Assembly: GCA_030706225.1 (NCBI GenBank)
Contig: JAUZOW010000001.1
Span: forward strand, 1-51,955
Source of the DNA: Bacteroidota bacterium
GTDB lineage: Bacteria; Bacteroidota; Bacteroidia; Bacteroidales; FEN-979
DNA length: 51,955 nucleotides
Direction of reading: 5' to 3'
Below are positions 1 to 51,955 of this stretch, piece after piece; the stretch's first letter is position 1, and every line of letters starts with the position of its first letter. Position numbers and translations under genes: made by a program. Under the pieces are notes generated by a model. It ran no database searches, was not told the DNA's origin, and was given only the letters and a program-made list of their open reading frames with translations.

Positions 1-31
1 CAGCCCATGAATGATTAAATGAATACATTCT

Positions 32-1390: not shown

Positions 1391-1430
1391 AGGTGATTGA
1401 TTTAAAGGTTGTTGTTATATTATCCTTAAG

Positions 1431-1438
1431 CAAAAATA
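1431..1438 (-). promoter_or_regulatory. Candidate Bacteroidota -7 box (TAnnTTTG on minus strand) for gdhA
   Basis: Plus-strand CAAAAATA is TATTTTTG on the minus strand, about 40 nt upstream of the gdhA ATG. A motif match only. Confidence 0.3.
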
Positions 1439-1611
1439 TTTAAAAGAAATTCCATTTCAATGAAAAAAACACTTGATTATTTGATTTAATATGCTTATAT
1501 TCAATAAGATACGTAAGTTACTTACGGTCTTTGGTGAATGTTACTTAAAATTTTGTACGTAAACCTCTTATCTTGCTAATAATCATTATTTTCCTCTTTG
1601 TTTTAGTTAAA

Positions 1612-1650
1612 AAATATCTTTATCTTTACAAAGAATCTTCAAAGATATTT
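1612..1650. promoter_or_regulatory. Perfect 10-bp inverted repeat AAATATCTTT-N19-AAAGATATTT (candidate operator or stem-loop)
   Basis: Arms at 1612-1621 and 1641-1650 are exact reverse complements. The repeat ends 24 bp upstream of the ATG at 1674, in the gdhA/cluster divergent intergenic region. Confidence 0.4.
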
Positions 1651-1673
1651 CCTGACTTTAAATTTGGAAAATC

Positions 1674-5549: not shown

Positions 5550-5607
5550 AAGAATGCACATAAATGAATTTTACAATAGCTTTTAATAACTATTATAAAA
5601 ACATCCT

Positions 5608-6126
5608 ATGCGTGTTTCAAGAATTTATCCATCCATCAACCGGAAATCCAATATCCAGGTTGATATTTCATTACTGGATCCCCTTCTTCAGAAATACAAG
5701 GGTATTAAAGGAAATCTGATCCCTTTGCTTCAGGGGACTCAGGAAATATATGGGTTCATTCCCCGTTCTGCTTTTGAGCGGATTTCGGATGAAACAGGGC
5801 TTCCATTGAGCAAAATGTACGGGGTAGCTACCTTTTATGCCCAATTCCGGCTTCATCCTGTCGGCAAACATATTATCAAAGTTTGTCATGGCACTGCCTG
5901 TCATGTTCAGAATGCCAACTTAATTTCTGAAGCCATTGAGGAAGAGCTGTGCGTAAAAGACGGTGAGACCACAGAAGATCATTTTTATACGCTGGAATCG
6001 GTTGCCTGCCTGGGATGTTGTTCCCTTGCACCGGTCATGATGGTAGGGGATCATGCCTACGGGAAACTAACCGGTACAAAAGCTACCCGGATACTGAAAG
6101 AAATTCGCGATAATGAGAATAAATGA
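5608..6126 (+). CDS. NuoE/HydC-like thioredoxin-fold [2Fe-2S] subunit (24-kDa family)
   Basis: 172 aa. The Cys pattern VCHGTACHV ... ACLGCCSLAPV and the LIPLLQ..Q...G.I motif are typical of the NuoE/HndA/HydC family. It lies 58 bp after the upstream ORF on the same strand. Confidence 0.9.
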   Translation: MRVSRIYPSINRKSNIQVDISLLDPLLQKYKGIKGNLIPLLQGTQEIYGFIPRSAFERISDETGLPLSKMYGVATFYAQFRLHPVGKHIIKVCHGTACHVQNANLISEAIEEELCVKDGETTEDHFYTLESVACLGCCSLAPVMMVGDHAYGKLTGTKATRILKEIRDNENK

Positions 6127-6143
6127 TCACAAATCATTGAAGT

Positions 6144-7922: not shown

Positions 7923-7954
7923 TTAACCGATCATCAAGTTGAAAAATTTTTAAA

Positions 7955-11680: not shown

Positions 11681-11701
11681 ATGTAACTTTACTGAAGTAA
11701 A

Positions 11702-14680
11702 ATGTTAAGCCGGAAAAATATACTGGATCCCAAGAAGTATTACTTTATTGACACTTCTTTCAATCTGCTGATGAAGCAGCGCATTTACCAGGTGCTGCTG
11801 ATTTCCAGTACATATGATTCATTTATGCTGGAAGAAGACGGAAGAATCGATGAAGTGATCTTTTTGGAATATGTTTCATTGAATCTGCGTTATCCTCCGC
11901 AATTCATTAAGGTGACTTCAGAAAAGGAGGCATTTGAAGTGCTGGAGGATAAGCGAATCGAACTGGTCATCTCAATGCTGAATATCGAAAATACGGACAC
12001 TTTCGATATTGCTTTGAAGATTAAGAAGAAATTTCCCCGTATCCCCATTGTCGTTCTGACTCCTTTTTCCAGGGAAGTAAACATGAAGCTCCGGGAACGG
12101 AATCTGTCTGCCATCGATTATGTTTTCAGCTGGCTTGGAAATGCCGATATTCTGATGGCCATTGTCAAGCTTATTGAAGACCGGATGAATATCGACCAGG
12201 ACATAGGTCAGGGAGTACAGGCGGTCATGCTGGTGGAGGACAGCATCCGGTTTTATTCAAGCTATCTTCCGAATATCTATAAGATCATTTACAGGCAGTC
12301 AAAAGGTTTTATCACTGAAGGGCTGAATGAGCATCAGAAGATGCTCCGGATGCGGGGGCGTCCAAAAATTCTTTTGGCGACAAGCTATGAAGAAGCCGTC
12401 AATATGTTCGGGAAATACAAAAACAACCTGCTTGGGATTATTTCGGATATCAGCTTTACGAAAAACGGGGTTACTGATAAAACAGCAGGTGTTCAATTTG
12501 TCAGGACTGTAAAGGAAGAAGATAATTTCATGCCTATCCTTTTACAATCGGCCGATTCGGAGAATGAAGCGATTGCCAAAGAGTTGGGGGTGGGATTCAT
12601 CAATAAGACATCCAAAACACTATCGATCGAATTACGGAATTATATCAATGAATACTTCTTTTTCGGGGATTTTGTCTTCATAGATCCAAAGACGGGCCGG
12701 GAAATTACGCGGGCTGCAGACCTGAAAACTCTTCAGGAAAAAATATTTGAAATTCCGGATGACTCCCTTTTGTATCATATGCAACGGAATCATTTTTCGA
12801 AATGGCTGAATGCCAGAGCTTTATTCCCTATTGCCGAAATGTTCAGAGAAGTATCGGTGTCAGAATTTGCAGATGTGGATGAAGCGAAGCGATACATATT
12901 CGATTCCATTACAGCCTTCCGGATTAACAAAGCTCGGGGAGTCATTGCTGATTTCGACCGGGAGAAGTATGACGAATACCTTCAGTTTGCCCGTATTGGT
13001 CAGGGATCCATCGGGGGAAAAGCACGGGGACTGGCTTTTCTTGATTCTCTCGTCAAGAGAAACCGGCTGGGTGAAAAGTTTCAGGATATTATCCTTTCAA
13101 TTCCCCGTACTGTCGTTATTGGAACCGACATCTTCGATGAGTTCATGGAAGACAACAAACTTTATGAAATTGCACTTTCCGACCGAAGTGATAAAGATAT
13201 CCTGGCTCATTTTATAAAAGCCCGTCTTCCCTTTACCATTCACGAGGATCTTTATGCTTTTGTCAACTGCATCAATTCACCGATTGCCATTCGTTCTTCG
13301 AGCCTGCTGGAGGATTCCCATTACCAGCCGTTTGCCGGGATTTATTCCACTTACATGATCCCCAATGTAAAATTCAATGAAAGGATCATGATTGAAAAAT
13401 TAAGCGAAGCTATTAAAAGTGTGTATGCTTCTGCTTTTTTCAGAGACAGTAAATCTTATATGGCTGCTACCCTCAACGTGATTGATGAAGAAAAAATGGG
13501 AATTGTGCTTCAGGAAGTAACGGGGAGACAATATGGCCCACGCTATTATCCTGCAATTTCAGGTGTGGCAAGGTCTATTAATTTTTACCCGATATCTCCG
13601 GAAAAACCGGAAGACGGGATTGCTAATATAGCTTTCGGGTTAGGTAAATATATCGTGGATGGTGGAGTCGGAATAAGATTTTCACCCCGTTATCCTAAAA
13701 AGATCCTTCAGCTTTCAACACCTGATCTTGCTTTAAGCGAAACACAAAAAACCTTTTATGCCCTGGACCTGGATGCTGATCATTTTGTGCCGAATATCGA
13801 TGAAACCGTCAATCTTCTGAAATTAAAGATTAAAGATGGAGAAGAAGATTCTGCTTTGCGTCTGATAGCCTCCACCTTTGATTACGACAGCAATCAGCTT
13901 CGCGATGGTACCCTGATGCCGGGTAAACGGATCGTCACTTTCTCCCAGATATTGAACCATGGCACATTCCCGTTAGCAGAGATTTTGCAAATGGTTTTGG
14001 AGATAGGGCAGAAGGAGATGGGTAAACCTGTTGAGATAGAGTTTGCGGTGAACCTGGATCTTCCACCCGGTGACCCCCGTGTATTTTCCCTGTTGCAGAT
14101 CCGCCCGATTGCCGGGAGAAACGATACAGTTGATCTCAATGAGGATGAAATCGTTCCGGATGAGGCCATTGTTCTGTCAAAATCAGCTCTTGGAAACGGA
14201 ATCATCAAAGATGTTCATGATTTTGTTTATATCCGTCCGGATTCCTTTTCCGCGGCAAAAAGTCCGGAAATAGCGCGGAGACTTGAAAATCTCAATGACA
14301 GGTTGAAGAATGAAAAGCGGGGTTATGTGCTTGTCGGGCCGGGAAGATGGGGTTCCAGTGATCCATGGCTGGGTATCCCGGTGAAATGGCCGCAGATCTC
14401 AGGCGCTCGTGTCATTGTCGAATCCGGATTGTCTACTTACCGGATCGATCCGAGCCAGGGTACTCATTTCTTCCAGAATCTTACCTCATTCCACGTCGGT
14501 TACTTTACCGTTAATCCTTACATTAACGAAGGAAAATATGATCTTGATTTTCTGAATTCCGTACCTGCTGAATTCGAAGATGAATTCATCCGGCAGATAC
14601 ATTTTGAAAAGCCCGTCCAAATTATCATTGACGGGAAAAAAGGAATTGGCCTGATCTATAAGCCGGGTGTTATCAGATAG
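11702..14680 (+). CDS. Paralog of the 1674-5549 product lacking the two N-terminal sensory modules: pseudo-receiver + receiver + PPDK_N-like ATP-grasp + conserved C-terminal module
   Basis: 992 aa, collinear with residues ~300-1291 of the first protein. Shared blocks: LLISSTYDSF/LLVANLYDAY, MLVEDS/LLVEDD, IISDISF/LISDVKF, GGKARGLAF/GGKGRGLAF, IRSSSLLEDS/IRSSGLFEDS, VEIEFAV, LLQIRP/LLQIKP, GPGRWG, WPQIS, GTHFFQN/GSHFFHN. Confidence 0.8.
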   Translation: MLSRKNILDPKKYYFIDTSFNLLMKQRIYQVLLISSTYDSFMLEEDGRIDEVIFLEYVSLNLRYPPQFIKVTSEKEAFEVLEDKRIELVISMLNIENTDTFDIALKIKKKFPRIPIVVLTPFSREVNMKLRERNLSAIDYVFSWLGNADILMAIVKLIEDRMNIDQDIGQGVQAVMLVEDSIRFYSSYLPNIYKIIYRQSKGFITEGLNEHQKMLRMRGRPKILLATSYEEAVNMFGKYKNNLLGIISDISFTKNGVTDKTAGVQFVRTVKEEDNFMPILLQSADSENEAIAKELGVGFINKTSKTLSIELRNYINEYFFFGDFVFIDPKTGREITRAADLKTLQEKIFEIPDDSLLYHMQRNHFSKWLNARALFPIAEMFREVSVSEFADVDEAKRYIFDSITAFRINKARGVIADFDREKYDEYLQFARIGQGSIGGKARGLAFLDSLVKRNRLGEKFQDIILSIPRTVVIGTDIFDEFMEDNKLYEIALSDRSDKDILAHFIKARLPFTIHEDLYAFVNCINSPIAIRSSSLLEDSHYQPFAGIYSTYMIPNVKFNERIMIEKLSEAIKSVYASAFFRDSKSYMAATLNVIDEEKMGIVLQEVTGRQYGPRYYPAISGVARSINFYPISPEKPEDGIANIAFGLGKYIVDGGVGIRFSPRYPKKILQLSTPDLALSETQKTFYALDLDADHFVPNIDETVNLLKLKIKDGEEDSALRLIASTFDYDSNQLRDGTLMPGKRIVTFSQILNHGTFPLAEILQMVLEIGQKEMGKPVEIEFAVNLDLPPGDPRVFSLLQIRPIAGRNDTVDLNEDEIVPDEAIVLSKSALGNGIIKDVHDFVYIRPDSFSAAKSPEIARRLENLNDRLKNEKRGYVLVGPGRWGSSDPWLGIPVKWPQISGARVIVESGLSTYRIDPSQGTHFFQNLTSFHVGYFTVNPYINEGKYDLDFLNSVPAEFEDEFIRQIHFEKPVQIIIDGKKGIGLIYKPGVIR

Positions 14681-20183: not shown

Positions 20184-21170
20184 ATGAACAGCGAGATACT
20201 TATATATCAAAACCAGGAAGGGACTATCAAGATAGACGTTCGCCTCGAAGAGGAGACGGTTTGGCTTACGCAAGAACAAATGGCAACATTATTCGGGAAA
20301 GCAAAATCGACAATCAATGAGCACATAAAAAATATTTATGAAGAGAAAGAGCTCGAAGAAGCAATGACAATGAAGAAATTCGGAATTTCCGAATTTCAGC
20401 AGAAAGCATCTAATTACTACAATCTTGATGTTGTGATTTCGGTTGGCTATCGGGTAAAATCATTACAAGGTACACAGTTCCGGATTTGGGCAACACAACG
20501 TCTTAAAGAGTATATTGTAAAAGGTTTCGCGCTGAATGACGAACGTTTCAAAACAGGGTCGTCAATGAATTATTTTAATGAACTTCAGGAACGTATACGC
20601 GAAATACGCATTTCGGAAAAGCTTTTCTATCAGAAAATCAAAGATATTTATAAAACCAGCATTGATTACGACCCCAATGATGAAAAAACCACAGCGTTTT
20701 TTAAAGTGGTGCAAAACAAGCTACTTTGGGCAATCAGCCAGCAAACCGCTGCCGAATTGGTTTACAGGCGGGTGGATGCTTCTTTGCCATTAATAGGCAT
20801 GCTTTCTTACGACAAAAAGGCAATAGGTCAGGTAAAGAAAGCGGAAGTAGCTATTGCAAAAAACTACCTGAACGAGGATGAAATAAAGTTACTGGGTTTA
20901 TTGGTTGAGCAATATCTTGCTTTTGCCGAAACAATGGCTCAACAACACCAACCTATGTATATGAAAGATTGGATTAAACGGTTGGATGTAATCCTGCAAT
21001 TAAACGGCCGTGAACTACTAACACATGGTGGAACTATCAGCCACCAAATGGCATTGGACAAGTCAGCCATTGAATACCAAAAATACAAGGAAATAATAAA
21101 ACAGGAAGAGAAGGAACAAAGCCTGAAAGAAATAGAAAATGATATTAAAAAGCTAAAACCGGGGAAATGA
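20184..21170 (+). CDS. rhuM: RhuM-family (virulence protein RhuM-like) protein
   Basis: 328 aa. The N-terminal pattern is typical of the RhuM family (IKIDVRLEEETVWLTQEQMATLFGK..STINEHIKNIY, NLDVVISVGYRVKS.QGTQFRIWATQRLKEYIVKGFALND). The sequence has visibly fewer CCGG tetramers and is more A-rich than the surrounding genes. Confidence 0.85.
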   Translation: MNSEILIYQNQEGTIKIDVRLEEETVWLTQEQMATLFGKAKSTINEHIKNIYEEKELEEAMTMKKFGISEFQQKASNYYNLDVVISVGYRVKSLQGTQFRIWATQRLKEYIVKGFALNDERFKTGSSMNYFNELQERIREIRISEKLFYQKIKDIYKTSIDYDPNDEKTTAFFKVVQNKLLWAISQQTAAELVYRRVDASLPLIGMLSYDKKAIGQVKKAEVAIAKNYLNEDEIKLLGLLVEQYLAFAETMAQQHQPMYMKDWIKRLDVILQLNGRELLTHGGTISHQMALDKSAIEYQKYKEIIKQEEKEQSLKEIENDIKKLKPGK

Positions 21171-21252
21171 TGCTCAACAACGACATAAAATACAGAGGTG
21201 AACTCGGGAAATCAATGAAATTTTACAAATACAGCAGCGTTGAACTTCCATT

Positions 21253-21295
21253 TCTTGGCAATTTGCGTTAAAAAAAGAATGACATCATCCGGAAA
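21253..21295 (+). repeat. Right copy of ~43-bp imperfect direct repeat flanking the rhuM-like gene
   Basis: See the left copy. This copy abuts the radC stop codon (21299-21301, minus strand). Confidence 0.85.
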
Positions 21296-21298
21296 TAA

Positions 21299-21997
21299 TT
21301 ACAGGCTTCCTTCATCCGCGAAGCTGTAATAACCGTTGTCACCTGAGATGATGTGATCCAGAACATTTATGTCCAGCAGATTTCCTGCATCCCGTATTTT
21401 TCTTGTAATTTTCATATCTGCTTCACTTGGCTGAAGATTTCCGGAGGGATGATTATGCCCCAGAATAATGGAAGAAGCATGGTGATCCAGGGCTATTTTA
21501 AAGATCTTTTTCGGATCGACCACAGTACCGGAAATGCCTCCCTCGCTGATGATGACCTTTCGGATGATTTTATTGGCTTTATTTAGCAGAAGGATCCAGA
21601 ATTCTTCGTAAGGCATGTCATCCATACTGCTTTTCAAAACTTCCCAGGCATCCCGGCTGTTCGTGATCTTCTCCCTGGCGATGACTTCCGACTCGCTTCT
21701 CCTTCGCCCCAGTTCCAACGCTGCGAGGATATTTACAGCTTTGGCTTCTCCAATTCCATTGAACTTAGTCAGCTCTTTTATTCCCATACGGGAAAGCTCA
21801 GCCAGGTTACCGTTCACTTCCTGAATGATTCTACGGGCGAGATCTACAGCTGATTCTGAACGGGTTCCGGAACCCAGCAGGATAGCCAGCAATTCGGCAT
21901 CACTAAGGGATTTTCTGCCTTTGATCAGGAGCTTCTCCCGTGGACGGTCTTCCTCTGCCCAATTCCGGATAGTGAAATGTTCCTTATATTCATCCAT
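21299..21997 (-). CDS. radC: RadC-family JAB-domain protein (UPF0758)
   Basis: 232 aa. It has the N-terminal PREKLL..G...LSDAELLAILLGSG helix-hairpin-helix region and a C-terminal JAMM-like HNHPSG..PS..D motif. Confidence 0.9.
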   Translation of the reverse strand: MDEYKEHFTIRNWAEEDRPREKLLIKGRKSLSDAELLAILLGSGTRSESAVDLARRIIQEVNGNLAELSRMGIKELTKFNGIGEAKAVNILAALELGRRRSESEVIAREKITNSRDAWEVLKSSMDDMPYEEFWILLLNKANKIIRKVIISEGGISGTVVDPKKIFKIALDHHASSIILGHNHPSGNLQPSEADMKITRKIRDAGNLLDINVLDHIISGDNGYYSFADEGSL

Positions 21998-22069
21998 CTT
22001 TTTTTTATTAATCGTTCAAAATGAAAAAGGTGATATGCTCGACCACCATTTTTTTATTACATTCGTAAA

Positions 22070-22828
22070 ATGATTGGCAATAGAATCATACGGCTTGACA
22101 AAGTAGATTCAACGAATCTCTATGCTGAAAGATGGCTTCGTGAGCATCAGGAAGACTGTGAAATGATGGAGGAAGATATTGTCATTATTTCCCGGGAGCA
22201 AACGGCAGGAAAGGGACAAGGTGAAAACCACTGGGAATCGGAAGCCGGGAAGAACCTTACATTTTCCATCATTCTGCATCCCGGTTTTCTGGATCCTTCG
22301 CTGCAGTTTCAACTAAATAAGGCCATTGCTCTGGGTGTCAGTGATTTTGTTCGTCAACAACTGAAACCTGTCCGCTGCTTTCTGAAGTGGCCAAACGATA
22401 TTTATGTGAATCAGCTTAAACTGGGAGGCATTCTGATCCAGCATCAGGTAAATGGTAAAATCCTCGAGAATTCAATCGTTGGTATTGGCCTGAACATAAA
22501 TCAATCTGTTTTTCTCCCGGAAATTCCTGAACCGGCATCTTTTTCCAATATTTCCGGGAAACAATTTGATACCGGAGAACTACTTCCTCTGGTGCTGAAA
22601 AATCTGGATTTTCGCTATAATCAGTTAAAATCAGGAAAGATAGACAAGCTGGATAAGGATTATCACGCCCGCTTGCTGGGATTTGGAAAATGGAATCGTT
22701 ACAGGGTAGGCGATGACTGGATCGAAGGATTGATGGCAGGTGTCGACGAATACGGCCAGCTTATCATCCGGGATACCGATGGGAAAGAGCACTTCTTCAG
22801 TCACGGGGTACTGAAGTTCAAACCCTGA
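22070..22828 (+). CDS. birA: Biotin-[acetyl-CoA-carboxylase] ligase (no N-terminal HTH)
   Basis: 252 aa. It carries QTAGKGQGENHWESEAGKNLTFSIIL (the GRGRxGRxW-equivalent loop) and KWPNDIY..KLGGIL. Confidence 0.85.
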   Translation: MIGNRIIRLDKVDSTNLYAERWLREHQEDCEMMEEDIVIISREQTAGKGQGENHWESEAGKNLTFSIILHPGFLDPSLQFQLNKAIALGVSDFVRQQLKPVRCFLKWPNDIYVNQLKLGGILIQHQVNGKILENSIVGIGLNINQSVFLPEIPEPASFSNISGKQFDTGELLPLVLKNLDFRYNQLKSGKIDKLDKDYHARLLGFGKWNRYRVGDDWIEGLMAGVDEYGQLIIRDTDGKEHFFSHGVLKFKP

Positions 22829-22832
22829 TATT

Positions 22833-24119
22833 TTATTCTCCTTCCAGAATAAAACCTGCCCAGAGATAGGGAAGTGAGGTTTCTTTTTTCGAAATAAAAT
22901 CAAGTTTGGTTTCCCGCAAAGCGGCAGCATATTTTTCCCCTTCCAGAATTTTTTTGTAAAAATCTTTCATAAAGGTGTATCCGTATTTGTCGGTTACATT
23001 CCAAAGCGAATAGATCACATTCCGGGCTCCTGCTTTTATGAAAGCCGTGGATAAAGATTTCCGGGATTGAAAATCGTCCGGATGATTTTTTCCTGTATAG
23101 CATCCGTTGAGTACAACAAGATTTGCGGTCAGTGGAAGTTGGATTATGTCATTATAATTGAGTATCATATCAGAATCATCGGTCCCGGAATCATTGAAAT
23201 CAGATAAAACCAGTCCTGATCCGGAGGGATCAGGATTATTGAACAATGAATGTGTGGCAAAATGGATGCAGGATTTTCCGGAGATATTTTGCTTCAGGGT
23301 ATATTTTGCAGTTTGATTATAGAGGCAGGAAGTAGCCGGAAGATTTGTATTCCTGAAAAGATCCGAAATTTCAAGGATCTCTGTTTCGGAATAAGGAAGT
23401 TGTACATACTGATTATTTTCGTTTGTCCTGAATGAAACCGGTGCAATCCCGATAAAGCTTTTTTCAGGTAAGGGTTTCTGCAAGGAAACCATTTTGTACC
23501 AGTTGTACAGAGAGGATGAATACAAAATTTCAAAACGGTTGACAAGGAAAATATCCGGATCAAATGAAGATTCTTTTTTCCTGCATTTGGGAAGATCCAT
23601 AACCAGTGCTTCAAACGGGATTTCAATCAGTTTTCCGTCGGGAATAATAATCAGTTTATGTTTTCCGGCAAGAGGGTCAAGAAACGGATAGATCAGCTGC
23701 CGGAATAAAATATTTCCGTTGTCAAGAAATTCATCTCTGTCGATCTGTTTGATCGAGTGGATGAAATGATGGACGGAGCCTATAAGACAAGGGGTTCTCT
23801 TCAATTTTTTAACCCAAAGTGAATCATGGGTGATCAGAAAAATGTACAGCAAAGAATCCTTCACCGAAAATTCAAGAATGGCTTCGTCTGGGAAAAGCTT
23901 ATTCCCAATGGTCCGTGAAAACGCTTTTTTGCAGAGGTAATGGGGTTTACAGGAAATGGATGCCGGGCAGTCATAACATAGGAAAGCCTGGCGGAATTCA
24001 CATACCGGTTCCAGAGGACAAGGATCTCCGGGACCTATGGAATAACAGACAATGGAAATCAGAATTCCCAGGATGATTGCGGGAATTCTCATCAAGCTGC
24101 AGATTGTATGTTGAAGCAT
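22833..24119 (-). CDS. Exported CHAT-domain (caspase-like Cys protease fold) protein
   Basis: 428 aa. It has an N-terminal hydrophobic signal/anchor (RIPAIILGILISIVC). The C-terminal ~200 aa show the CHAT pattern with a His/Cys dyad (CIHFATHS at H290; LVVLNGCYTGK at C340). An alternative start at M10 (24092) is possible. Confidence 0.8.
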   Translation of the reverse strand: MLQHTICSLMRIPAIILGILISIVCYSIGPGDPCPLEPVCEFRQAFLCYDCPASISCKPHYLCKKAFSRTIGNKLFPDEAILEFSVKDSLLYIFLITHDSLWVKKLKRTPCLIGSVHHFIHSIKQIDRDEFLDNGNILFRQLIYPFLDPLAGKHKLIIIPDGKLIEIPFEALVMDLPKCRKKESSFDPDIFLVNRFEILYSSSLYNWYKMVSLQKPLPEKSFIGIAPVSFRTNENNQYVQLPYSETEILEISDLFRNTNLPATSCLYNQTAKYTLKQNISGKSCIHFATHSLFNNPDPSGSGLVLSDFNDSGTDDSDMILNYNDIIQLPLTANLVVLNGCYTGKNHPDDFQSRKSLSTAFIKAGARNVIYSLWNVTDKYGYTFMKDFYKKILEGEKYAAALRETKLDFISKKETSLPYLWAGFILEGE

Positions 24120-24154
24120 AGAACATAGGTATTGGGTTGGGATAAGTTGGGCTA

Positions 24155-24955
24155 TCAGGGCTGTTTAATGATGAATTTTCCAAAATGGACGATATCCTCA
24201 TCCTCGATGATCTTATAATAATACAATCCGGGCATAAGGGATCCGGCGTGAAAGGATATTGTATCTTCTTGAATATCTGGAAAGTTCAGTTCCTGATTTC
24301 CCGTATTATTCAGAATAAACAAGCTGATTTCCTTTCTTTCACTGTTTTTCCACTTGAAAAATATTCTCTCGTTTCTGCTGAATTGTGCATCATATTCCGG
24401 CAATTCCATTTTAAAAAAGTTATTCCGCATGGCTATACCGACCAGGCTTTCCAATGCCGGATCGGGAAGGAGCCTCTCAGACAGAAGATTCACTCCGGTT
24501 GCCCGGTCTGTCATTTTGAGAGGTTTCCTTCTCTTTCCGGACTCTGGGAAGAGGTGCGTATTATTCAGGCAAATTATTTCAGATGAGTCCTTTGATGTAG
24601 TAATTATTTGATTGATGTTTTTGTTTTTTTTCTGTTTTTCAGGACAGCTTATATCATAGAAGAAAAATGAAAATACCAATCCGATAAGCAGAAAAAAGGA
24701 TGCAGCCAGGAAAAAGATGGAAGGGTCACAATTGCGGGAATTCTCCTGCTCTTTTTTTATTTTCAGGAATATTTCCCTTAGCTCCAGGATGTCCTCTTCT
24801 GATAAATAGTCATTCAGTTCTTTATCCATCCTTACTTCAGCGCGAAGACGGGGATTTTTTTCAAGTAACGAATAAAACTCTTTTAGCTCTTTTCCCTTTA
24901 AATTGCCCTGATTGAACAGGTCTATCCATTCGAAGAGCTTTTCTTTGTCATTCAT
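24155..24955 (-). CDS. Single-pass membrane protein, anti-sigma-factor-like
   Basis: 266 aa. The N-terminal ~75 aa form a helical cytoplasmic segment (W..L...G.L.G.E..EF..LL..NP.L) of the kind seen in Bacteroidota anti-sigma proteins. One TM helix follows (IFFLAASFFLLIGLVFSFFFY), then a ~165-aa extracytoplasmic domain. Its start overlaps the sigma gene stop (ATGAATGA). Confidence 0.5.
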   Translation of the reverse strand: MNDKEKLFEWIDLFNQGNLKGKELKEFYSLLEKNPRLRAEVRMDKELNDYLSEEDILELREIFLKIKKEQENSRNCDPSIFFLAASFFLLIGLVFSFFFYDISCPEKQKKNKNINQIITTSKDSSEIICLNNTHLFPESGKRRKPLKMTDRATGVNLLSERLLPDPALESLVGIAMRNNFFKMELPEYDAQFSRNERIFFKWKNSERKEISLFILNNTGNQELNFPDIQEDTISFHAGSLMPGLYYYKIIEDEDIVHFGKFIIKQP

Positions 24956-25529
24956 AATTTAAAAGGTTTTTGCATTTCGGATCTTTAAGAATTCGCTTCC
25001 TGAGCATATTTTTGCACAGGTATTTTCTGGTTTTAACATAGCCTTCATCCTTGAAGCCCAATAAAGATGCAATCTCCCGAAGCGGAACCTTTTTAATAAA
25101 TAATTTCAGGATTTTCTGGCAATCTCCGGGTAGTGAAAGGAAGTGTGTTTCGTAGAGCCGTCTCCGTTCCAGCTTTTCTTCTTCAATGTCCATCTCTTCA
25201 GTCATTAACATTTCATTTGTATCATTGACAAGATTATCTCTGTAACAAAGCCGCCATTTCCTGTCAAGCCGCTGCTTCCATATATTCCTGCAAATACTGT
25301 AGAAGTATGTTTTCATACTACAATTCAGGATAAGCGATCCTTTACTGCATTTTGTATAAAGGGCGATCAGCCCGTCATGAAATACATCTTCTGCATCTTC
25401 ATATGTGCCTGAATTCCTGGTCACAAATGATTTTGCCAGTGGAAAATATTCCCTGTAAAGGTAGCGGATGCAATCAGCCCGCTTTTCTAATAATCCTTTC
25501 ACGACTTCTTCGTCAGACAAAATGACCAT
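24948..25529 (-). CDS. ECF-type sigma-70 family RNA polymerase sigma factor
   Basis: Region-2-like (DAEDVFHDGLIALY .. TYFYSICRNIWKQ) and region-4-like HTH (LSLPGDCQKILKLFIKKVPLREIASLLGF) segments are present. The ORF-track start at 25541 is a TTG. The first ATG is 25529. Confidence 0.8.
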   Translation of the reverse strand: MVILSDEEVVKGLLEKRADCIRYLYREYFPLAKSFVTRNSGTYEDAEDVFHDGLIALYTKCSKGSLILNCSMKTYFYSICRNIWKQRLDRKWRLCYRDNLVNDTNEMLMTEEMDIEEEKLERRRLYETHFLSLPGDCQKILKLFIKKVPLREIASLLGFKDEGYVKTRKYLCKNMLRKRILKDPKCKNLLNYE

Positions 25530-25663
25530 GCTGTGTGTCAATACACATTAATCCGCTAACCTTGAAAAGGTGATACGGTTGTTAATAACTTTTTTTTAAA
25601 GATTCCCTTCCCGCAGGAAATGTTCTGCAGGTATTGTAAGGGATAAAGAAACAGCGAAGTGCT

Positions 25664-36088: not shown

Positions 36089-37243
36089 TCAGGGTTCATC
36101 AGGAAATTTGACCGGTTTTGAAAATGCCGGATTGGTTATAAAAGAACTGTCATTCAATGAAAGAAGAAAAGCTTTAAGATCTGCTTTCTCCGAAGGAGTA
36201 AGCCGGACTCCGTGAGTAGAAATGTGGTGCATCAAAGGACTGATATAAGGCGACCAGACCAGTCCGCTGCTGTAAAAGTCAATTACTTCATCCAGTGTTT
36301 TGAAACGGCCGTCATGCATATAAGGTGCAATAAACCCTATATTCCGGAGAGAAGGCGCTTTATATGCTCCGATATCCGAAGCGTTTCCGGTTACATAATA
36401 GCGGTCATGGGTATTCGCCGTAAAAGCACTGTCTTTCCCGTTGTTATAAAACAAATTGGTTGTGAACAGCGGGTTTCCGTCACCTCCATGGCAATGAAAA
36501 CAATCAGCGCCTTGTTCGGTGACAAATAAAACAAAGCCGTCCATTTCGGAGGGAGTAAGTTGCAATTCTCCGTTGAGATAACGGTCAAATCTTGAATCCG
36601 AAGAAATCAGGGTACGTACGAATTGGGCAATGGCCCGTCCCATATTTTTAACGGTCACCCGATCGCTTCCAAATGCTTTTTTAAACAGTTCCGGATAACC
36701 TTTTACCGATTGGATCAGCGCTTTTGCCCGGAGGGTATCACTATGCATTTCATGGGGGGCAACAATTCCCATCCATACAAGATCCTCGATGTTTCTTTTT
36801 GACGTATTCGGGTTGTTCTTATAAACAGATCCGTTCCAAAGATAACCAGTCTGGTTCCACACCAGATTACATAAAGAAAGCATGTAATCGGGTGTAGGAA
36901 TACCGGTTACTCCGTGAGGATGCCCTCCGGGATAGTTCGGATTATCGATTCCGCAGACAAAAGCATGAGACTGGATATGGCAGCTCGCACAACTCATCAT
37001 CGAATCCGGATGGGTTCTCCCTGAGATCCTTCCATCGTAAAACAGATAACGTCCCAACGCAATTCCTTCAACCGTCATGGGATTATCTGACGGGATGTTC
37101 ATTTCATTCGGAAAATATCTGGGAACCTGGATTGTATAAGGTGTCGGCTTTTCCACAGTTGCTTCATTCTGCGTCTTTTTACAGGAAAAAAACAATCCCG
37201 TAAAAGTGATGGCGATCAATAATATCCAGGGACGGGAGACCAT
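36089..37243 (-). CDS. Di-haem cytochrome c peroxidase family protein (MauG/MbnH-like), lipoprotein
   Basis: 384 aa. It has a signal peptide with lipobox (LFFSC) and two CxxCH haem motifs (CASCH and CFHCH). The motifs APSLRNI and PYMHDG are typical of the CCP/MauG family. Confidence 0.85.
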   Translation of the reverse strand: MVSRPWILLIAITFTGLFFSCKKTQNEATVEKPTPYTIQVPRYFPNEMNIPSDNPMTVEGIALGRYLFYDGRISGRTHPDSMMSCASCHIQSHAFVCGIDNPNYPGGHPHGVTGIPTPDYMLSLCNLVWNQTGYLWNGSVYKNNPNTSKRNIEDLVWMGIVAPHEMHSDTLRAKALIQSVKGYPELFKKAFGSDRVTVKNMGRAIAQFVRTLISSDSRFDRYLNGELQLTPSEMDGFVLFVTEQGADCFHCHGGDGNPLFTTNLFYNNGKDSAFTANTHDRYYVTGNASDIGAYKAPSLRNIGFIAPYMHDGRFKTLDEVIDFYSSGLVWSPYISPLMHHISTHGVRLTPSEKADLKAFLLSLNDSSFITNPAFSKPVKFPDEP

Positions 37244-37255
37244 TTACGATTCATC

Positions 37256-38125
37256 TTATTGAATAGAAAATACATTTTCACCGTTCCGGGCTGCCTTACT
37301 CATCCCTTCTTCATTTTGCATTATTCCCATAGCATATTTTGAGAAATCAAAAGTTTCCGTACCATCGAACCATTTTTCAATATTCATTCGAATTGTCAGA
37401 GTTTTCTTTTTCCCTTCTTCAAATTTAAAACCCGACAGAGGAAGTCTGACTTTAAAGTAATTCTGAACGTACCCGGTAATGGAATCCGCATTGGTTGAGG
37501 TTCCATTGTAAATCTGTCCAATACCCATGTGGAACATGAAAGGCATCAGCATCATCATGGTATCGGATTTATATTTCAGATTGAGCTTCATATAATGATA
37601 ACCACCCCCCAAAAACTCTGGCCAGAACATATCTCTTTCGGGAGGATTTAAAAAACGCTTTGAACGATTCTTTTTTTCACTTAATCCAAAGATGAAAGAA
37701 ACGGAATCGCAATATCCTGTTCTCAAATGGCTTTTAATTATGTTCCATTTCAAAGAGGTGGGAATCCCTATATCGGTATAATGAATGCTGTCGTTGTCGG
37801 TGACAAAGATTTCATTTCCGTTAGTGTAATGAAATGCCAGATCCGAAATAAAGTATTGCAGGTCATTCACCATATAATGATATCCCAGCGAAGTTGTATA
37901 GATCAGAGAGTCGGTAATCATCGGATTACCCGATACTGTATGCTCAAAACAGATCGTAACCGTATCAGGGGAAGGATAGACGACAGTAGGCTTCTCCGTT
38001 TTCTGGCAGCTTGAAAGGAGTAAGAAGGAGGGAAGAAGGAGAAAAATAAGAAAATGGAACGTCAAACGCAGTACATTGGAAGCAGGACGTTGGATTTCGT
38101 AATGGGTTTGAGAATTTTTTTTCAT
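37256..38125 (-). CDS. Exported hypothetical protein, possibly MbnP-like partner of the adjacent peroxidase
   Basis: 289 aa with a signal peptide and lipobox-like LLSSC. It lies immediately upstream of the di-haem peroxidase (12-bp gap), as in MbnP/MbnH pairs. The MbnP assignment rests on context and size, not on motifs I can verify. Confidence 0.4.
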   Translation of the reverse strand: MKKNSQTHYEIQRPASNVLRLTFHFLIFLLLPSFLLLSSCQKTEKPTVVYPSPDTVTICFEHTVSGNPMITDSLIYTTSLGYHYMVNDLQYFISDLAFHYTNGNEIFVTDNDSIHYTDIGIPTSLKWNIIKSHLRTGYCDSVSFIFGLSEKKNRSKRFLNPPERDMFWPEFLGGGYHYMKLNLKYKSDTMMMLMPFMFHMGIGQIYNGTSTNADSITGYVQNYFKVRLPLSGFKFEEGKKKTLTIRMNIEKWFDGTETFDFSKYAMGIMQNEEGMSKAARNGENVFSIQ

Positions 38126-46977: not shown

Positions 46978-46985
46978 TAATTTTG
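46978..46985 (+). promoter_or_regulatory. Candidate Bacteroidota -7 box TAATTTTG upstream of gatE
   Basis: Matches TAnnTTTG 31 nt upstream of the ATG at 47017. Confidence 0.3.
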
Positions 46986-47016: not shown

Positions 47017-48999
47017 ATGAGCTCAAAATTTGATCCACGCCGCAACTATAATGAAACCCGGAAAGCTATAGGATACGTTCCGCGAAGCAAAGCAACACAG
47101 AAAGATTACGACAGGATTGGTTTTACCTCCGGGCTGGAAGTTCACCAGCAATTAAATACCAGAGAAAAACTATTTTGTCGTTGTCCTGCCGGGATATATC
47201 AGAAAGCAGATGATTATGATGCGGAACTGATCCGCCATATGCGTCCGACTCTTAGTGAATTGGGCGAATATGATGGGACTGCTTTAATGGAATTCAAGAC
47301 CCGTAAAAAGATAATTTACAGGATCAAAAATCAAACTGCCTGTACTTACGATGTGGATGACACACCTCCATTTCCTCTGAACCGGGAAGCTCTTGAGATT
47401 GCCATTGAACTGTCGTTGATTTCGAAGCTGAATATCGTCGGTGAAGTGCATATCACCCGGAAACAGTACCTGGATGGATCTATCCCCACAGGTTTTCAAC
47501 GTACTGCCATCATCGGGGTTGAAGGTGAAATGCAATTAAAGAATAAAAAGGTAAAATTAATCCAGCTCAGCCTGGAAGAAGATGCCTGTCGTGAAGTTTC
47601 GGATATTGGCCATGTAAGAGTATATCGTACCGACCGTCTGGGAATGCCCCTGATCGAAACCGTTACCTATCCTGAATTTAAAAATCCGGATGAGGTGAAA
47701 GAAGGTGCCGATTATATTCGTTTCATGAACCGGAGTACTGGGAAAGTACGTACCGGTATTGGTTCTACCCGTGCGGATGTCAATGTGAGCTGTACCGGTG
47801 GAACAAGAATTGAAATCAAAGGCGTTGCCCATACATCCTGGATGCCTGAGCTGACTCATAATGAAGTATTCCGTCAATGGGCTTTGCTTCATATCAAAGA
47901 AATGCTTCTCGAAAGAGTTAAAGCACCTGTTGAATGGAAGTCGTCTCATAAAGAAGTGAGCGCCAAGGAAATAGGTCTTAAAGAAGATCTTATTCGCGCC
48001 CTTAGCCAGCCTTCTGTAAAAATTTATATTATCAATCTTCCGCAGTATCACGGTATATTATCACACTTTACCCAACCGGGTAAAATGTTTGCTGATGAAT
48101 TTTCAGATCGACTGAAAGTTATTGCCTGCATTGAAAAACCCAATATGCTTCATTCTGAAATGCCGGATGATATTGCAGGAAAGAAAGTCTGGGCCAAAGT
48201 ATCCAGCTTGCTTGACAGTAAGGAAGAAGATGCACAGCTTATCATCTGGGGTGATGAAGACGATATCCCTACGGCTCTTGAAACGATCGAAGAACGCTGC
48301 CGCATGGCTTTCAGTGGTATTCCGAAAGAAACCCGTAAATCGTTAAAAGACGGTACAACCATTTTTGAACGGGTTCTTCCCGGTGCCGACCGTATGTACC
48401 CGGATACGGATTCCGCTCCTATTCCTCTTTCTGATCAGCGTATTACTGAGATTTCACAAAATCTTCCGGTATTGGTTTCCGAACGTTATGCAGAACTTAC
48501 AAAATGGAATGTTCCGGAAGATACCTATACCTATATATTGAAGAACAACCTCATGCCTCTGATTGAAAAATGCCAATCCGATCTGGGTGTGGAACCTCGC
48601 TTTACTGCAACCCTGCTGGCTCATACATTGAAGCATATTCGTGGCCAGCATCCGGCAGCTCCCGAATTTTCCTTCAACAAAATATATGATTTACTGGGTT
48701 TTCTTGTCAACAGGAAACTCGATCTCGCCATCGCCAGGAAGATGCTGTATCATCTTTATCAGCACCCGAAAATGGATTTCGATTCAATTCTTGTGACTAT
48801 GGGATTTAATGAAATTCCACGCGAGGAGATCATCGAAAAGATTCCGTTCCTGGTCAAAAAATATGATCAGATTAAGACCTCTGAAAATTCAGGTGCCGGT
48901 GTCCGTTGGATCATGGGACACCTGAGTGAAAAAGCGCTGGGCAACATGCCACTGAGCGAACTGAAAGAGATGATTCTGAAAGAAGGAATGAAGGATTGA
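47017..48999 (+). CDS. gatE: Archaeal-type Glu-tRNA(Gln) amidotransferase subunit E
   Basis: 660 aa. It carries GLEVHQQLNT.EKLFCRCP and ELIRHMRPTLSELGEYDGTALMEF, then DDTPPFPLN.EAL and HITRKQYLDGSIPTGFQRTAIIG, and further on ADVNVS and PDTD. This pattern matches GatE rather than GatB, including the GatE-specific insertion and long C-terminal tail. Confidence 0.88.
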   Translation: MSSKFDPRRNYNETRKAIGYVPRSKATQKDYDRIGFTSGLEVHQQLNTREKLFCRCPAGIYQKADDYDAELIRHMRPTLSELGEYDGTALMEFKTRKKIIYRIKNQTACTYDVDDTPPFPLNREALEIAIELSLISKLNIVGEVHITRKQYLDGSIPTGFQRTAIIGVEGEMQLKNKKVKLIQLSLEEDACREVSDIGHVRVYRTDRLGMPLIETVTYPEFKNPDEVKEGADYIRFMNRSTGKVRTGIGSTRADVNVSCTGGTRIEIKGVAHTSWMPELTHNEVFRQWALLHIKEMLLERVKAPVEWKSSHKEVSAKEIGLKEDLIRALSQPSVKIYIINLPQYHGILSHFTQPGKMFADEFSDRLKVIACIEKPNMLHSEMPDDIAGKKVWAKVSSLLDSKEEDAQLIIWGDEDDIPTALETIEERCRMAFSGIPKETRKSLKDGTTIFERVLPGADRMYPDTDSAPIPLSDQRITEISQNLPVLVSERYAELTKWNVPEDTYTYILKNNLMPLIEKCQSDLGVEPRFTATLLAHTLKHIRGQHPAAPEFSFNKIYDLLGFLVNRKLDLAIARKMLYHLYQHPKMDFDSILVTMGFNEIPREEIIEKIPFLVKKYDQIKTSENSGAGVRWIMGHLSEKALGNMPLSELKEMILKEGMKD

Positions 49000-49034
49000 T
49001 TTTATAAATCGTAAATAGTTAATAGTAAATTATA

Positions 49035-50420
49035 ATGGCTGACGATATTTTCCAGGGCTATAAAGGACACGCGCTCGAAATACTGAAAAAACACAATGCC
49101 CGGGTTTGGGCTCACGTGAAAGTAGATACAACCCGGGGTATGTTTGAAGGAACTATTCTTCCCCGTTCTGAAAATACGGATGACAAGCACCTGGTATTGA
49201 AGATATTTACCGGTTATAACATCGGTCTTGATGTAGATACTATCCGGGATATCAAGGAATTGGGTTATAAAAAGGCAGTTTACAAAATCCCTGAAAAGGA
49301 ATTCCCTTATTCTGAAGGTAAACCTAATGTAAAGCTTCTGGGAACCGGCGGAACCATTGCTTCCCGTCTTGACTATCGTACGGGTGCTGTTATTCCGGCT
49401 TTCTCTCCCGGGGAACTTTATGGAGCAGTTCCTGAATTAGCCGATATCTGCAACCTGACAACCGAAAAGCTTTTTGCTGTTTTCAGTGAAAATATGGGAC
49501 CGGAACAGTATAAAAAACTGGCAGTTGCAATCGGTAATGAAATCGAAAAAGGAATTGACGGTATTATTATCGGCCATGGAACGGATACCATGCATTATAC
49601 ATCGGCAGCTTTGACTTTTATGGTACAGGATCCCCCGGTTCCTATCGTTCTGGTAGGATCCCAGCGCTCATCTGATCGTCCCAGCTCGGATGCTGCGTTG
49701 AACCTGATGCATGCCGCAACAGCAGCAGGACACGGCGATATTGCCGAAGTCATGGTTTGTATGTTTGGACCTACTTCCGATGAATATGGTTTCCTCCATC
49801 GTGGAACCCGTGTCAGAAAAATGCACTCTTCATACCGTTCTACTTTCCGGACTATTGGTGATACTCCGCTGGCAACGGTTACCCGTCAGGGAGTTACTCC
49901 TATAAAAACCGAATATAACCATCGCCGGAAAGACCGTAAGGTAAAAATTATGCCTTATTTTGAAGAACGGGTAGCCATGCTGTATTACTATACCAATATG
50001 AATCCCGATATGATCGACGCTGCTGTCGATAATGGATATAAAGGGATTATAATTATCGGTACAGGACTTGGTCATGTCAACAAACCCCTTTATCCTGCTA
50101 TTAAGCGTGCCATTCAGAAAGGTGTTGCAATCTATATGACCGTTCAGACTCTCTGGGGCTATGTTCATATGTTTGTTTATGATACCGGCCGTGATCTGAT
50201 GGCTTTAGGAATCGTTCCTGCAGAAAATATGCTTCCTGAAACCGCATATATCAAGCTTGGGTGGGCATTGGGACAAACCAACGATCTGGAAAAAGTCAAA
50301 GAGATTATGCTTACTCCGATCAATGGTGAAATCACTAAACGCGAACCATACAATGGTTATCTTATCTACCAGGGCGGAGTGCCGGAAGTTGAAGCATTCA
50401 TAAAGCAATTCCATAAATAA
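49035..50420 (+). CDS. gatD: Archaeal-type Glu-tRNA(Gln) amidotransferase subunit D (asparaginase-like)
   Basis: 461 aa. It has the GatD N-terminal domain (FEGTILPRSE...LVLKIFTGYNIGLDV), then GTGGTIASRLDYRTGAV, GHGTDTMHYTSAAL and VGSQRSSDRPSSDAALNL. Confidence 0.9.
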   Translation: MADDIFQGYKGHALEILKKHNARVWAHVKVDTTRGMFEGTILPRSENTDDKHLVLKIFTGYNIGLDVDTIRDIKELGYKKAVYKIPEKEFPYSEGKPNVKLLGTGGTIASRLDYRTGAVIPAFSPGELYGAVPELADICNLTTEKLFAVFSENMGPEQYKKLAVAIGNEIEKGIDGIIIGHGTDTMHYTSAALTFMVQDPPVPIVLVGSQRSSDRPSSDAALNLMHAATAAGHGDIAEVMVCMFGPTSDEYGFLHRGTRVRKMHSSYRSTFRTIGDTPLATVTRQGVTPIKTEYNHRRKDRKVKIMPYFEERVAMLYYYTNMNPDMIDAAVDNGYKGIIIIGTGLGHVNKPLYPAIKRAIQKGVAIYMTVQTLWGYVHMFVYDTGRDLMALGIVPAENMLPETAYIKLGWALGQTNDLEKVKEIMLTPINGEITKREPYNGYLIYQGGVPEVEAFIKQFHK

Positions 50421-50433: not shown

Positions 50434-51955
50434 CTAATAACTGATCGAATAGGTCAACTCAAATCCCCAGGAATTGTCATGGGGGAAATAAGTACTTCGC
50501 ATACCCAATGCAATGGGATACAAAAATCTCAGTAGATGAAAGTCCGTTGTAAGTTCAACGCCGGTTGATTTATAAACACCGGATGTAAATCTTTCCTGGT
50601 AATTTACGCTCCAACTTTCTGCATAATCAAAGAACAGGTTCATCCGGACCCGTTTGAAATAAAGCAGAGAACCCAGACTCCAGTCGGGATAAAAAAGAGG
50701 CATGGCATAATTAAAGGAAAGGGAATATATTTTTGGATCAAAAATATCATAATACCCCCGGGGATAGGTAATCACATCCGCATATCGATAACTAAGGGTT
50801 CCCGGGTTATAATGATTCTGGAATGCTCCGTAAATACGGATTCCATGATGTCCAAACATACCGGGAAAATAAAACCGTGTTTCAATCCCAAGCACGGATC
50901 CCATATCATTTTTTGTAAACGGCGTACTGCGATAAACGAAAAAGAAAGTCTGTCCCCATCTGGGATAAATATCTTTTCCGGAAGATCTGGTATATTGGAA
51001 GAAGGAGAGCTTATAATCCAACGATTGGATCAATCCCTGGTTAAAATATTCTGGCGTAGATGAATGATGTTTTGCATATATTAGGGTAGTCCCGATTGAT
51101 GGGGTGAGATAACGGTAATAATTCCCAAAACTGAAATTCCAGGGAATGCTGACAGATGTCGAAAGATTCATTTCCTGCCAGGTAAACCGTACCTTCTCAT
51201 TCCGGAATGATGTGATTGCATAGCCTGCCCGGTTCCCAATATCAAAATGAAAATCTAATACGGGATATAATCCTTTATAGCTCAGCGTTGTATAATATTT
51301 TCCCGTCTTCTCGTTCAGATTGTAATCGTAACCGGCTGATACAATCATGGTGCTCAGGTCATTCTGTGAAAGGACCATTATTCCCGGACTCATATCTAAA
51401 TTACCGGCACTGAATGAAACCGGTGCCCAGCAATGAAAATTGAATAAATGACCCAACTTTGAATACTTACAAACTGAGTCCAACGTCTCATGTTCAGAAT
51501 ATTTTGTCCCATGTTGTAAAACGCTATCCTGAACATTCACCTTTTCTTGTTCTGCCATTGCTTCAAAAAGCCGGTAAGAGTTATCGGTTATCCGGTCGAC
51601 AGGTATCCAGGCGGTAGAGTCAATCCGGGCTTCGGCAATCTGAAATCCATCTGCTCCGGAATCGGTGTAAATAAAACGGCTGGTATGGATCGAAAAGTCC
51701 GGATCATATGCACCGAATCGTGATGACGTGACCTGATACATCTTTTTAAAAGGGATATTCAGAATATAAAGGTTCTCTATTCCTGAATAATCAGACGAAA
51801 ACAGGATATAATTATTCCCCCAAAATGAAGGACCGGAAATCTGGTGATAGCTGAAAGGTAAAATGCTGGAAAATATTCCCGAATCCGGATCAAACAGACC
51901 GATGCTGTTTCCTCTGGCATCCAGCCATGTAAAAGCAATCCGTGTACCCTCTGCA
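50434..51955 (-). CDS. PD40/TolB-like repeat protein with C-terminal beta-barrel-like domain (5'-truncated by window edge)
   Basis: The minus-strand frame stays open from 51741 to the window end (..GPSFWGNNYILFSSDYSGIENLYILNIPFKKMYQVTS..), so the ATG at 51741 is internal. The C-terminus ends in aromatic ..LTYSISY, like outer-membrane barrels. Confidence 0.55.
   Translation of the reverse strand, partial: AEGTRIAFTWLDARGNSIGLFDPDSGIFSSILPFSYHQISGPSFWGNNYILFSSDYSGIENLYILNIPFKKMYQVTSSRFGAYDPDFSIHTSRFIYTDSGADGFQIAEARIDSTAWIPVDRITDNSYRLFEAMAEQEKVNVQDSVLQHGTKYSEHETLDSVCKYSKLGHLFNFHCWAPVSFSAGNLDMSPGIMVLSQNDLSTMIVSAGYDYNLNEKTGKYYTTLSYKGLYPVLDFHFDIGNRAGYAITSFRNEKVRFTWQEMNLSTSVSIPWNFSFGNYYRYLTPSIGTTLIYAKHHSSTPEYFNQGLIQSLDYKLSFFQYTRSSGKDIYPRWGQTFFFVYRSTPFTKNDMGSVLGIETRFYFPGMFGHHGIRIYGAFQNHYNPGTLSYRYADVITYPRGYYDIFDPKIYSLSFNYAMPLFYPDWSLGSLLYFKRVRMNLFFDYAESWSVNYQERFTSGVYKSTGVELTTDFHLLRFLYPIALGMRSTYFPHDNSWGFELTYSISY

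Follow-up and report, generated by a model that had tools for sequence, protein, structure and literature searches.

The tRNA-dependent amidotransferase GatDE is described in reviews from 2008, 2021 and 2022 as an archaeal signature enzyme found in archaea only, and evolutionary arguments have been built on this view. Its co-evolution with the A1-U72 tRNA(Gln) of archaea, for instance, has been used in reviews to explain why archaea never acquired a glutaminyl-tRNA synthetase (GlnRS). In the enzymes of M. thermautotrophicus (2D6F) and Pyrococcus abyssi (1ZQ1), GatD consists of a GatD_N domain and an asparaginase fold, while GatE consists of a cradle, an insertion resembling aspartyl-tRNA synthetase (AspRS), a helical domain and a tail domain. 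The usual bacterial amidation of both Glu-tRNA(Gln) and Asp-tRNA(Asn) is carried out by GatCAB. Its GatB subunit, a paralogue of GatE, has the same cradle fold and Mg2+ site and recognises U1-A72, but GatB lacks the AspRS-like insertion, and the glutaminase is the amidase-family GatA together with GatC rather than an asparaginase-type GatD. Here we describe an adjacent gatE-gatD pair in a 51,955-nt stretch of DNA (hereafter the window; the whole of contig JAUZOW010000001.1 in the metagenome-derived assembly GCA_030706225.1) from a bacterium of the Bacteroidales, which probably encodes an active enzyme of the GatDE type.

The gene gatE (47017-48999, forward strand) encodes a tRNA-dependent kinase/amidotransferase subunit of 660 residues, assigned from hidden Markov model (HMM) and PDB matches. 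The gene gatD (49035-50420, forward strand) encodes an asparaginase-type glutaminase subunit of 461 residues with a GatD_N domain, assigned from HMM, Pfam and PDB matches. Since no terminator-like site was found in the 35-bp spacer between them (49000-49034), the two genes are presumably co-transcribed. The annotation of the locus is not new: the Prokaryotic Genome Annotation Pipeline already names both proteins of this contig GatE and GatD, hundreds of such bacterial proteins are listed as GatE or GatD in sequence databases, and the pair is common in the bacterial lineage of the window. A literature search found no paper describing a bacterial GatDE.

The product of gatE exceeds both NCBIfam equivalog cut-offs for GatE, scoring 475.6 against 456 for NF003107 and 414.3 against 319.55 for TIGR00134, and Pfam identifies a GatB/GatE catalytic domain within it. 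In contrast, no GatB model scores above 122.7, where the cut-offs are 314 or more; the best of them reaches 122.7 against 338. The closest PDB sequences are 1zq1_C (E 4e-89) and 2d6f_C (E 2e-87), matched over residues 30-644. A single alignment to 1zq1_C over these residues takes in the AspRS-like insertion, which is absent from GatB, as well as the helical and YqeY-like tail domains. The sub-cut-off GatB scores and the presence of the insertion rule out that this open reading frame (ORF) encodes the GatB subunit of GatCAB, and the preliminary description of the window, which had called it GatE from the DNA alone, was right in this respect.

The residues required for catalysis by GatE are also in place. 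H43, E187 and E214 of the window protein correspond to H15, E157 and E184 of M. thermautotrophicus GatE, the Mg2+ ligands whose mutation kills the enzyme (PMC2330236), and are 97-100% conserved across the bacterial clade described below. Archaeal GatE representatives are at least 90% conserved in 85 columns, and the window protein has the identical residue in 72 of these. An AlphaFold model from an alignment of 103 sequences has a predicted local distance difference test score (pLDDT) of 94.8 and a predicted template modelling (TM) score of 0.92. Its best fold match is 1zq1_C (E 9e-46, target-normalised TM 0.84), followed by 2d6f_C and 2d6f_D, with all GatB chains behind. A first model (pLDDT 59.9), from a shallow alignment in which 39 sequences shared 70-75% identity with the window GatE, was discarded.

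The product of gatD scores 511 against 310 for NF003217 and 506.7 against 324 for TIGR02153, the two NCBIfam GatD equivalogs, and Pfam identifies GatD_N (PF18195, 43.8 against 25.7), Asparaginase and Asparaginase_C domains. It fails the equivalogs for asparaginase 1, asparaginase 2 and type II asparaginase (NF006998, 122.7 against 376; NF008304, 135.7 against 506; TIGR00520, 151.5 against 314.3). It does pass the broad type I asparaginase subfamily model TIGR00519 (378 against 260.5), as is expected for any GatD. A stand-alone L-asparaginase (AnsA or AnsB) is ruled out by the GatD_N domain and the GatD equivalog scores, and HMM scoring thus upholds the original reading of this ORF as well. The protein matches 1zq1_A (E 8e-117) and 2d6f_A (E 6e-115) over its full length with 46-47% identity. 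T107 (in TGGT), T183-D184 (HGTDT) and K262 (VRKMH) are invariant with respect to both solved GatD chains. The M. thermautotrophicus counterparts are reportedly T101, T177, D178 and K254 (numbering of Feng 2005 and Oshikane 2006). The presence of an asparaginase-type Thr-Asp-Lys triad in GatD has been stated previously (PMC2330236).

The window pair therefore has the same two subunits, the same domain set and the same catalytic residues (Thr/Thr-Asp/Lys in GatD and the His/Glu/Glu Mg2+ ligands in GatE) as archaeal GatDE, from which it differs in having a bacterial host and promoter and a tight gatE-then-gatD order. GatE is more distant from the archaeal structures than GatD, with 30-36% identity by Foldseek. 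The nearest sampled archaeal relative of both subunits is Heimdallarchaeota-like (the GatE representative P0157 and the locus L085). L085 lies in an archaeal context, with ribosomal protein aS21 and an S13-S4-S11 cluster, and its gatD and gatE (24-3534) are adjacent but divergent, unlike the co-directional bacterial pair. The bacterial enzyme belongs to the same family as the archaeal one and presumably performs the same chemistry.

We propose that the pair forms an active GatDE-type amidotransferase that converts Glu-tRNA(Gln) into Gln-tRNA(Gln), and estimate the probability of this reading at about 0.72. A Bacteroidota sigma-A-type promoter would drive the joint transcription of gatE and gatD. 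If the enzyme works as it does in archaea, a GatD dimer would bind two GatE subunits. GatE would then bind Glu-tRNA(Gln) that has been mischarged by a glutamyl-tRNA synthetase of the non-discriminating type (ND-GluRS) or by a second GluRS, and would phosphorylate the glutamyl gamma-carboxyl group using ATP and Mg2+. GatD likely frees ammonia from glutamine or asparagine, which would move through an internal tunnel and be used by GatE to form Gln-tRNA(Gln). For the substrate we infer tRNA(Gln) with the bacterial U1-A72 pair rather than the A1-U72 pair of archaea; the partnership with such a GluRS and the function in the cell proposed here for bacterial GatDE are inferred likewise.

The pair is native to its bacterial host. 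A scan covering one genome per GTDB species identified 133 close relatives, of which 80 were fetched (GatE 62-75% identical). Nearly all of these are metagenome-assembled genomes (MAGs) of Bacteroidales, Prolixibacteraceae, Lentimicrobiaceae or Sphingobacteriales, but they also include MAGs of Edwardsbacteria and UBP2, a single-cell assembly from Aminicenantes and a complete Bacteroidales chromosome of 4.6 Mb. The gene order LptD, amidase, MlaD, OstA, gatE, gatD is common to about 50 of the relatives' loci, and the same block occurs inside a single contig of 5.27 Mb. One locus with exactly this Bacteroidales synteny (L059, SACF01000026.1) is labelled 'Alphaproteobacteria bacterium' and is near-identical to another fetched locus, L009 (synonymous divergence, dS, about 0.1); the MAG is probably mis-binned or mislabelled. 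The gene gatD lies directly 3' of gatE in all related loci that extend far enough except L057, L060, L062, L086 and L087. A 1163-residue GatE-GatD fusion ORF in L046 was rejected as an artefact of a run of N at 11950-12090 between the two genes.

Upstream of gatE, direct reading identifies the box TAATTTTG at 46978-46985 on the forward strand, 31 nt before the ATG. It matches TAnnTTTG, the -7 motif of Bacteroidota promoters. Of 66 related loci, 54 have a TAnnTTTG box in the 120 nt upstream of gatE, at a distance of about 38 nt (35-42 nt in nearly all cases) from the start, against a chance expectation of about 0.05 per 120 nt calculated from the window's own frequency. A scan with the sigma-70 consensus, which is not relevant to Bacteroidota, returned sites no commoner than in shuffled sequence. 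The composition of the pair is that of the contig: CCGG density is 8.8 per kb against 8.3 elsewhere, and the GC content of gatE and gatD is 0.435 and 0.44, respectively, against 0.42. Among Bacteroidota relatives with unsaturated synonymous divergence, the median ratio of non-synonymous to synonymous divergence (dN/dS) is 0.04 for gatE and 0.02 for gatD, indicating strong purifying selection. Searches of plasmid and phage collections found no homologue on a bacterial plasmid or on a phage.

The idea that the pair is an assembly or binning artefact, in which archaeal DNA has been joined to a bacterial contig, or else a decaying relic, was considered merely because the family is regarded as archaeal; nothing was found in its favour. 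The same bacterial flanks recur in about 50 independent assemblies, including the 4.6 Mb chromosome and the 5.27 Mb contig, both ORFs are intact, and GatE falls in a clade of its own that is only about 32% identical to archaeal GatE. Because the synteny is shared, the promoter and composition are those of the host, dN/dS is low and no mobile-element homologue exists in the collections searched, contamination, chimerism and decay are excluded, and this explanation is refuted. The gatE and gatD genes of this contig are genuine, native and correctly annotated. These results support the preference expressed in the preliminary description for an old, domesticated inter-domain transfer over contamination, together with its observations of a Bacteroidota-type box, whose position is conserved in relatives, and of a host-like CCGG-rich composition.

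The bacterial proteins form a clade that extends well beyond the Bacteroidota. An exhaustive search of 1.84 billion representative proteins returned 601 representatives at an E-value of at most 1e-30, and a neighbour-joining GatE tree of 115 full-length representatives and the window protein splits into a bacterial and an archaeal group with 100% bootstrap support. The window's group contains about 33 clusters at the 50% level. Identity averages 43% within this group, 40% within the canonical GatE group and 32% between the two. Each member of the window's group that can be placed is bacterial by name or gene context, including 8 of 8 sampled deep representatives. The contexts of these deep gatE genes include sigma-54 activators and RND/OEP efflux genes (L081), HPr kinase and phosphotransferase system genes (L083), Mur ligases, MraZ and Lnt (L084), a type IX secretion system sorting domain (L086), OEP and YknX genes (P0141), and flagellin and FliS (L087). 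Named members belong to the Deltaproteobacteria and to candidate division CSSED10-310, while the GatD of the Cloacimonadota bacterium Ca. Celaenobacter antarcticus is 81% identical to that of the window. The hosts of the clade thus comprise Bacteroidota, Aminicenantes, Cloacimonadota, Deltaproteobacteria and candidate phyla. Proteins of the second group either bear archaeal names (Heimdallarchaeota, Thorarchaeota, Thermoprotei) or are encoded in an archaeal ribosomal-protein context. The restriction to Archaea by which GatDE has been characterised is a taxonomic rather than a molecular criterion and has no bearing on family membership; here the flanks, promoter, synteny and clade are all bacterial. 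The pair had originally been presented as unusual in this setting. It is not peculiar to this genome or lineage, being spread over several phyla with members labelled GatE or GatD by NCBI and IMG, which by the criterion of the preliminary description makes this one locus less novel, although the literature search found no account of a bacterial GatDE.

The gatE-then-gatD order is kept across the bacterial group, with a few exceptions in which gatE has no adjacent gatD. In L057, L060, L062 and L086, no gatD is present within the fetched flank of gatE, and the gene may lie elsewhere in the genome or GatE may work differently; in L086, gatE adjoins a glutamine-dependent NAD synthase gene. In L087 (CAZKNE010000150.1 of GCA_964554005.1), gatE is followed by an overlapping radical SAM/SPASM gene rather than by gatD. 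About 70 nt upstream of this gatE lies a tRNA gene (328-402, forward strand; ARAGORN, Rfam tRNA 46.5 bits against 29) with the anticodon UUA, an A1.A72 mismatch and an encoded CCA end. This tRNA would read the UAA stop codon, yet there is no global reassignment of UAA, since TAA terminates the flagellin gene of that contig. The tRNA could be a dedicated substrate or a suppressor. In the window's own clade, tRNA scans of all loci found no tRNA gene linked to the gatE-gatD pair.

Outgroup-rooted trees of both subunits place the bacterial sequences within archaeal diversity. When the GatE tree is rooted with three GatB fragments (190 columns), bacteria are monophyletic with 82% support, archaea are not monophyletic (4%), and P0157, whose 90% cluster includes the Heimdallarchaeota protein TET29438.1, is sister to bacteria. 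P0157 is also the archaeal GatE representative most similar to the bacterial group, with an average identity of 37%. When the GatD tree is rooted with two archaeal asparaginases (314 columns), bacteria are monophyletic with 100% support and group with the GatD of the Heimdall-like locus with 97% support. Profile searches for diverse archaeal GatD gave only near relatives of their seeds (Bacteroidota; Thermococcales or Methanobacteriales). As the GatE and GatD trees agree, a single joint transfer of both subunits from Archaea, followed by long diversification in bacteria, is likely from the sequences; a Heimdallarchaeota-like donor is tentatively suggested.

The bacterial clade might instead be the vertically inherited remainder of a GatDE that the last common ancestor of all life (LUCA) already had and that was lost from most bacteria. 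The two clades are indeed reciprocally separate in unrooted and midpoint-rooted trees, with the split supported at 100%, and bacterial diversity is as deep as archaeal diversity (mean identity 43% and 40%, respectively); published phylogenetics have also proposed GatDE in LUCA (PMC9499178, PMC2943598). We nevertheless consider vertical descent improbable: both outgroup-rooted trees nest bacteria inside archaeal sequences, beside the Heimdall-like sequence, archaeal monophyly receives 0-4% bootstrap support in these trees, and the bacterial distribution is patchy, with nearly all carriers being uncultured lineages represented by MAGs alone.

Bacterial GatE differs from archaeal GatE in two main regions. 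An N-terminal extension of about 28 residues (47017-47103, forward strand; residues 1-29) carries the motif FDP..NY......IGYVPR..A and is conserved in 81 bacterial relatives from at least three phyla, including the Aminicenantes and UBP2 loci, which bears out the extension first noticed in the DNA. Residues 11-18 form a confident helix in the AlphaFold model. Archaeal GatE, including the Heimdallarchaeota-like protein, lacks the extension and usually starts 10-12 residues ahead of GLEIHQQL. The second region is the AspRS-like insertion domain (47914-48276, forward strand; approximately residues 300-420), which aligns to the insertions of 1zq1_C and 2d6f_C and gives the model a weak extra fold match to AspRS (4ah6_A, probability 0.93). 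Departures from the archaeal GatE consensus are concentrated here; at positions 379 and 381, residues conserved to 90% or more among archaea persist in only about half of the bacterial proteins. The archaeal insertion domain provides a pocket that docks ND-GluRS and excludes non-discriminating AspRS (ND-AspRS) (PMC2943598). Bacterial and archaeal GatE are also cleanly told apart by eight further alignment columns, several of which adjoin catalytic motifs (as in RMYPDTD versus RMYPETD).

GatD is much more conserved than GatE at each depth. Identity is 85-91% for GatD and 68-75% for GatE in close relatives, 62-71% and 40-48% in deeper bacterial loci, and 49% and 38% in the Heimdall-like locus. 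Archaeal GatDE reads the A1-U72 pair of tRNA(Gln) (PMC2330236), whereas the single tRNA-Gln(UUG) of a Bacteroidales MAG bearing gatE-gatD, the one host-clade tRNA compared, has U1-A72. The changed insertion, the extension, the U1-A72 pair and the greater conservation of GatD together suggest that the catalytic core has been kept while the tRNA- and partner-recognition surfaces have been rebuilt. The bacterial proteins form a separate clade, marked by a gene order of its own, an extra segment at the N-terminus of GatE and changes in the recognition domain; its tRNA identity rules would necessarily differ as well.

Several observations weigh against the proposed role in Gln-tRNA(Gln) synthesis. 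A published survey reports 68 bacterial genera, including Bacteroidetes, whose genomes encode AsnRS, GlnRS and GatCAB side by side (PMC4206432), and because Bacteroidetes can carry all three, a Glu-tRNA(Gln) amidotransferase might be redundant where GlnRS and GatCAB co-occur in these hosts. At insertion positions 359, 374 and 382, where archaeal GatE is at least 90% conserved, most of the bacterial clade has other residues, and the sole bacterial tRNA(Gln) examined lacks the A1-U72 pair that archaeal GatDE recognises. On the evolutionary side, the rooted trees are neighbour-joining trees with short outgroups, and the archaeal GatD sample is small. A tblastn search of the 1.4 Mb of fetched loci, using GatE and an E. 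coli GlnRS query, found no GlnRS, GluRS or GatB.

An intact enzyme could have been retargeted, acting on Asp-tRNA(Asn), on both substrates in the manner of bacterial GatCAB, or in tRNA-dependent synthesis of an amino acid or secondary metabolite rather than in the everyday reading of Gln codons. The eight group-specific GatE columns and the conserved new extension would fit such a change, as would the replacement of archaeal residues in a domain that in archaea excludes ND-AspRS. The deep-clade gatE genes without an adjacent gatD, with a radical SAM/SPASM gene and tRNA(UUA) in L087 and an NAD synthase gene in L086, point the same way, as does the possible presence of GlnRS in Bacteroidetes. 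Retargeting is nonetheless unlikely in our view: all residues for kinase and amidotransferase chemistry survive along with the complete domain set, the insertion domain included, no neighbour conserved across the clade points to another pathway, and the very low dN/dS fits a role in core translation. Conversion of Glu-tRNA(Gln) to Gln-tRNA(Gln) is therefore the reading we prefer. In a bolder form of it, many uncultured and probably mostly anaerobic bacteria would make Gln-tRNA(Gln) mainly or solely through a GatED of Asgard-like origin with rebuilt recognition, which would have displaced GatCAB and/or GlnRS. In that case, the changed insertion and new N-terminal extension may fit the enzyme to bacterial U1-A72 tRNA(Gln) and a bacterial GluRS. 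We regard this extension as speculative and, on present evidence, doubtful.

The genes flanking the pair encode bacterial envelope proteins. A divergent OstA-like gene lies 106 bp upstream of gatE, and a convergent gene (ORF 50434-51741) lies 13 bp downstream of gatD; these spacers, the gene coordinates and the 35-bp gap are all as first reported. Pfam matches to LptD_2, Amidase_3, MlaD and OstA_2/LptD_N substantiate the earlier description of the flanks as envelope genes, but not its PD40/beta-barrel label for ORF 50434-51741, for which the Pfam scan of the window gave no match; a full-length homologue elsewhere has merely a faint Tricorn_2nd match. The envelope-gene synteny does not reach beyond the closest family, and in deeper members of the clade unrelated genes surround gatE, so a functional link between gatE-gatD and the envelope genes was rejected. 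The rest of the 52-kb window is also bacterial and encodes, among others, LptF/G, glutamate dehydrogenase and urocanate hydratase. An Rfam scan of the window found nothing.

Three other regions of the window contain unusual gene combinations. At 1674-14680, a same-strand cluster encodes two very large proteins (1291 and 992 residues) with PEP-utilising/PigC-like regions, flanking genes for a thioredoxin-like 2Fe-2S ferredoxin, a NuoF-like protein and a 1241-residue fusion of GltD-like and FdhA/NuoG-like parts. This cluster could be an unusual electron-bifurcating oxidoreductase module. At 20184-25541, a RhuM-family gene (20184-21170) and a gene for a CHAT-domain protein (22833-24119) occur amid small unassigned ORFs and may form a defence or caspase-like module; a CHAT/TPR protein also adjoins the syntenic block in locus L088. 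Finally, at 36089-38125, the gene for an MbnP-like protein lies beside that for a di-haem MauG/CCP-type peroxidase, resembling an MbnP/MbnH-like pair.

A large, strongly selected bacterial GatED clade implies an enzyme able to function, or adapted so as to function, with the tRNAs and synthetases of bacteria. It offers a natural experiment on the rewiring of tRNA and partner recognition after inter-domain transfer and a fresh data set for the debate over GatDE in LUCA. It also calls for caution when gatD and gatE serve as markers of archaea in genome-based metabolic reconstructions or in lists of domain markers. Should GatED prove to be the main or sole route to Gln-tRNA(Gln) in these bacteria, GatDE would no longer be an archaeal signature, and the long-standing question of why archaea retain two amidotransferases and bacteria use a single one would become testable in bacteria.

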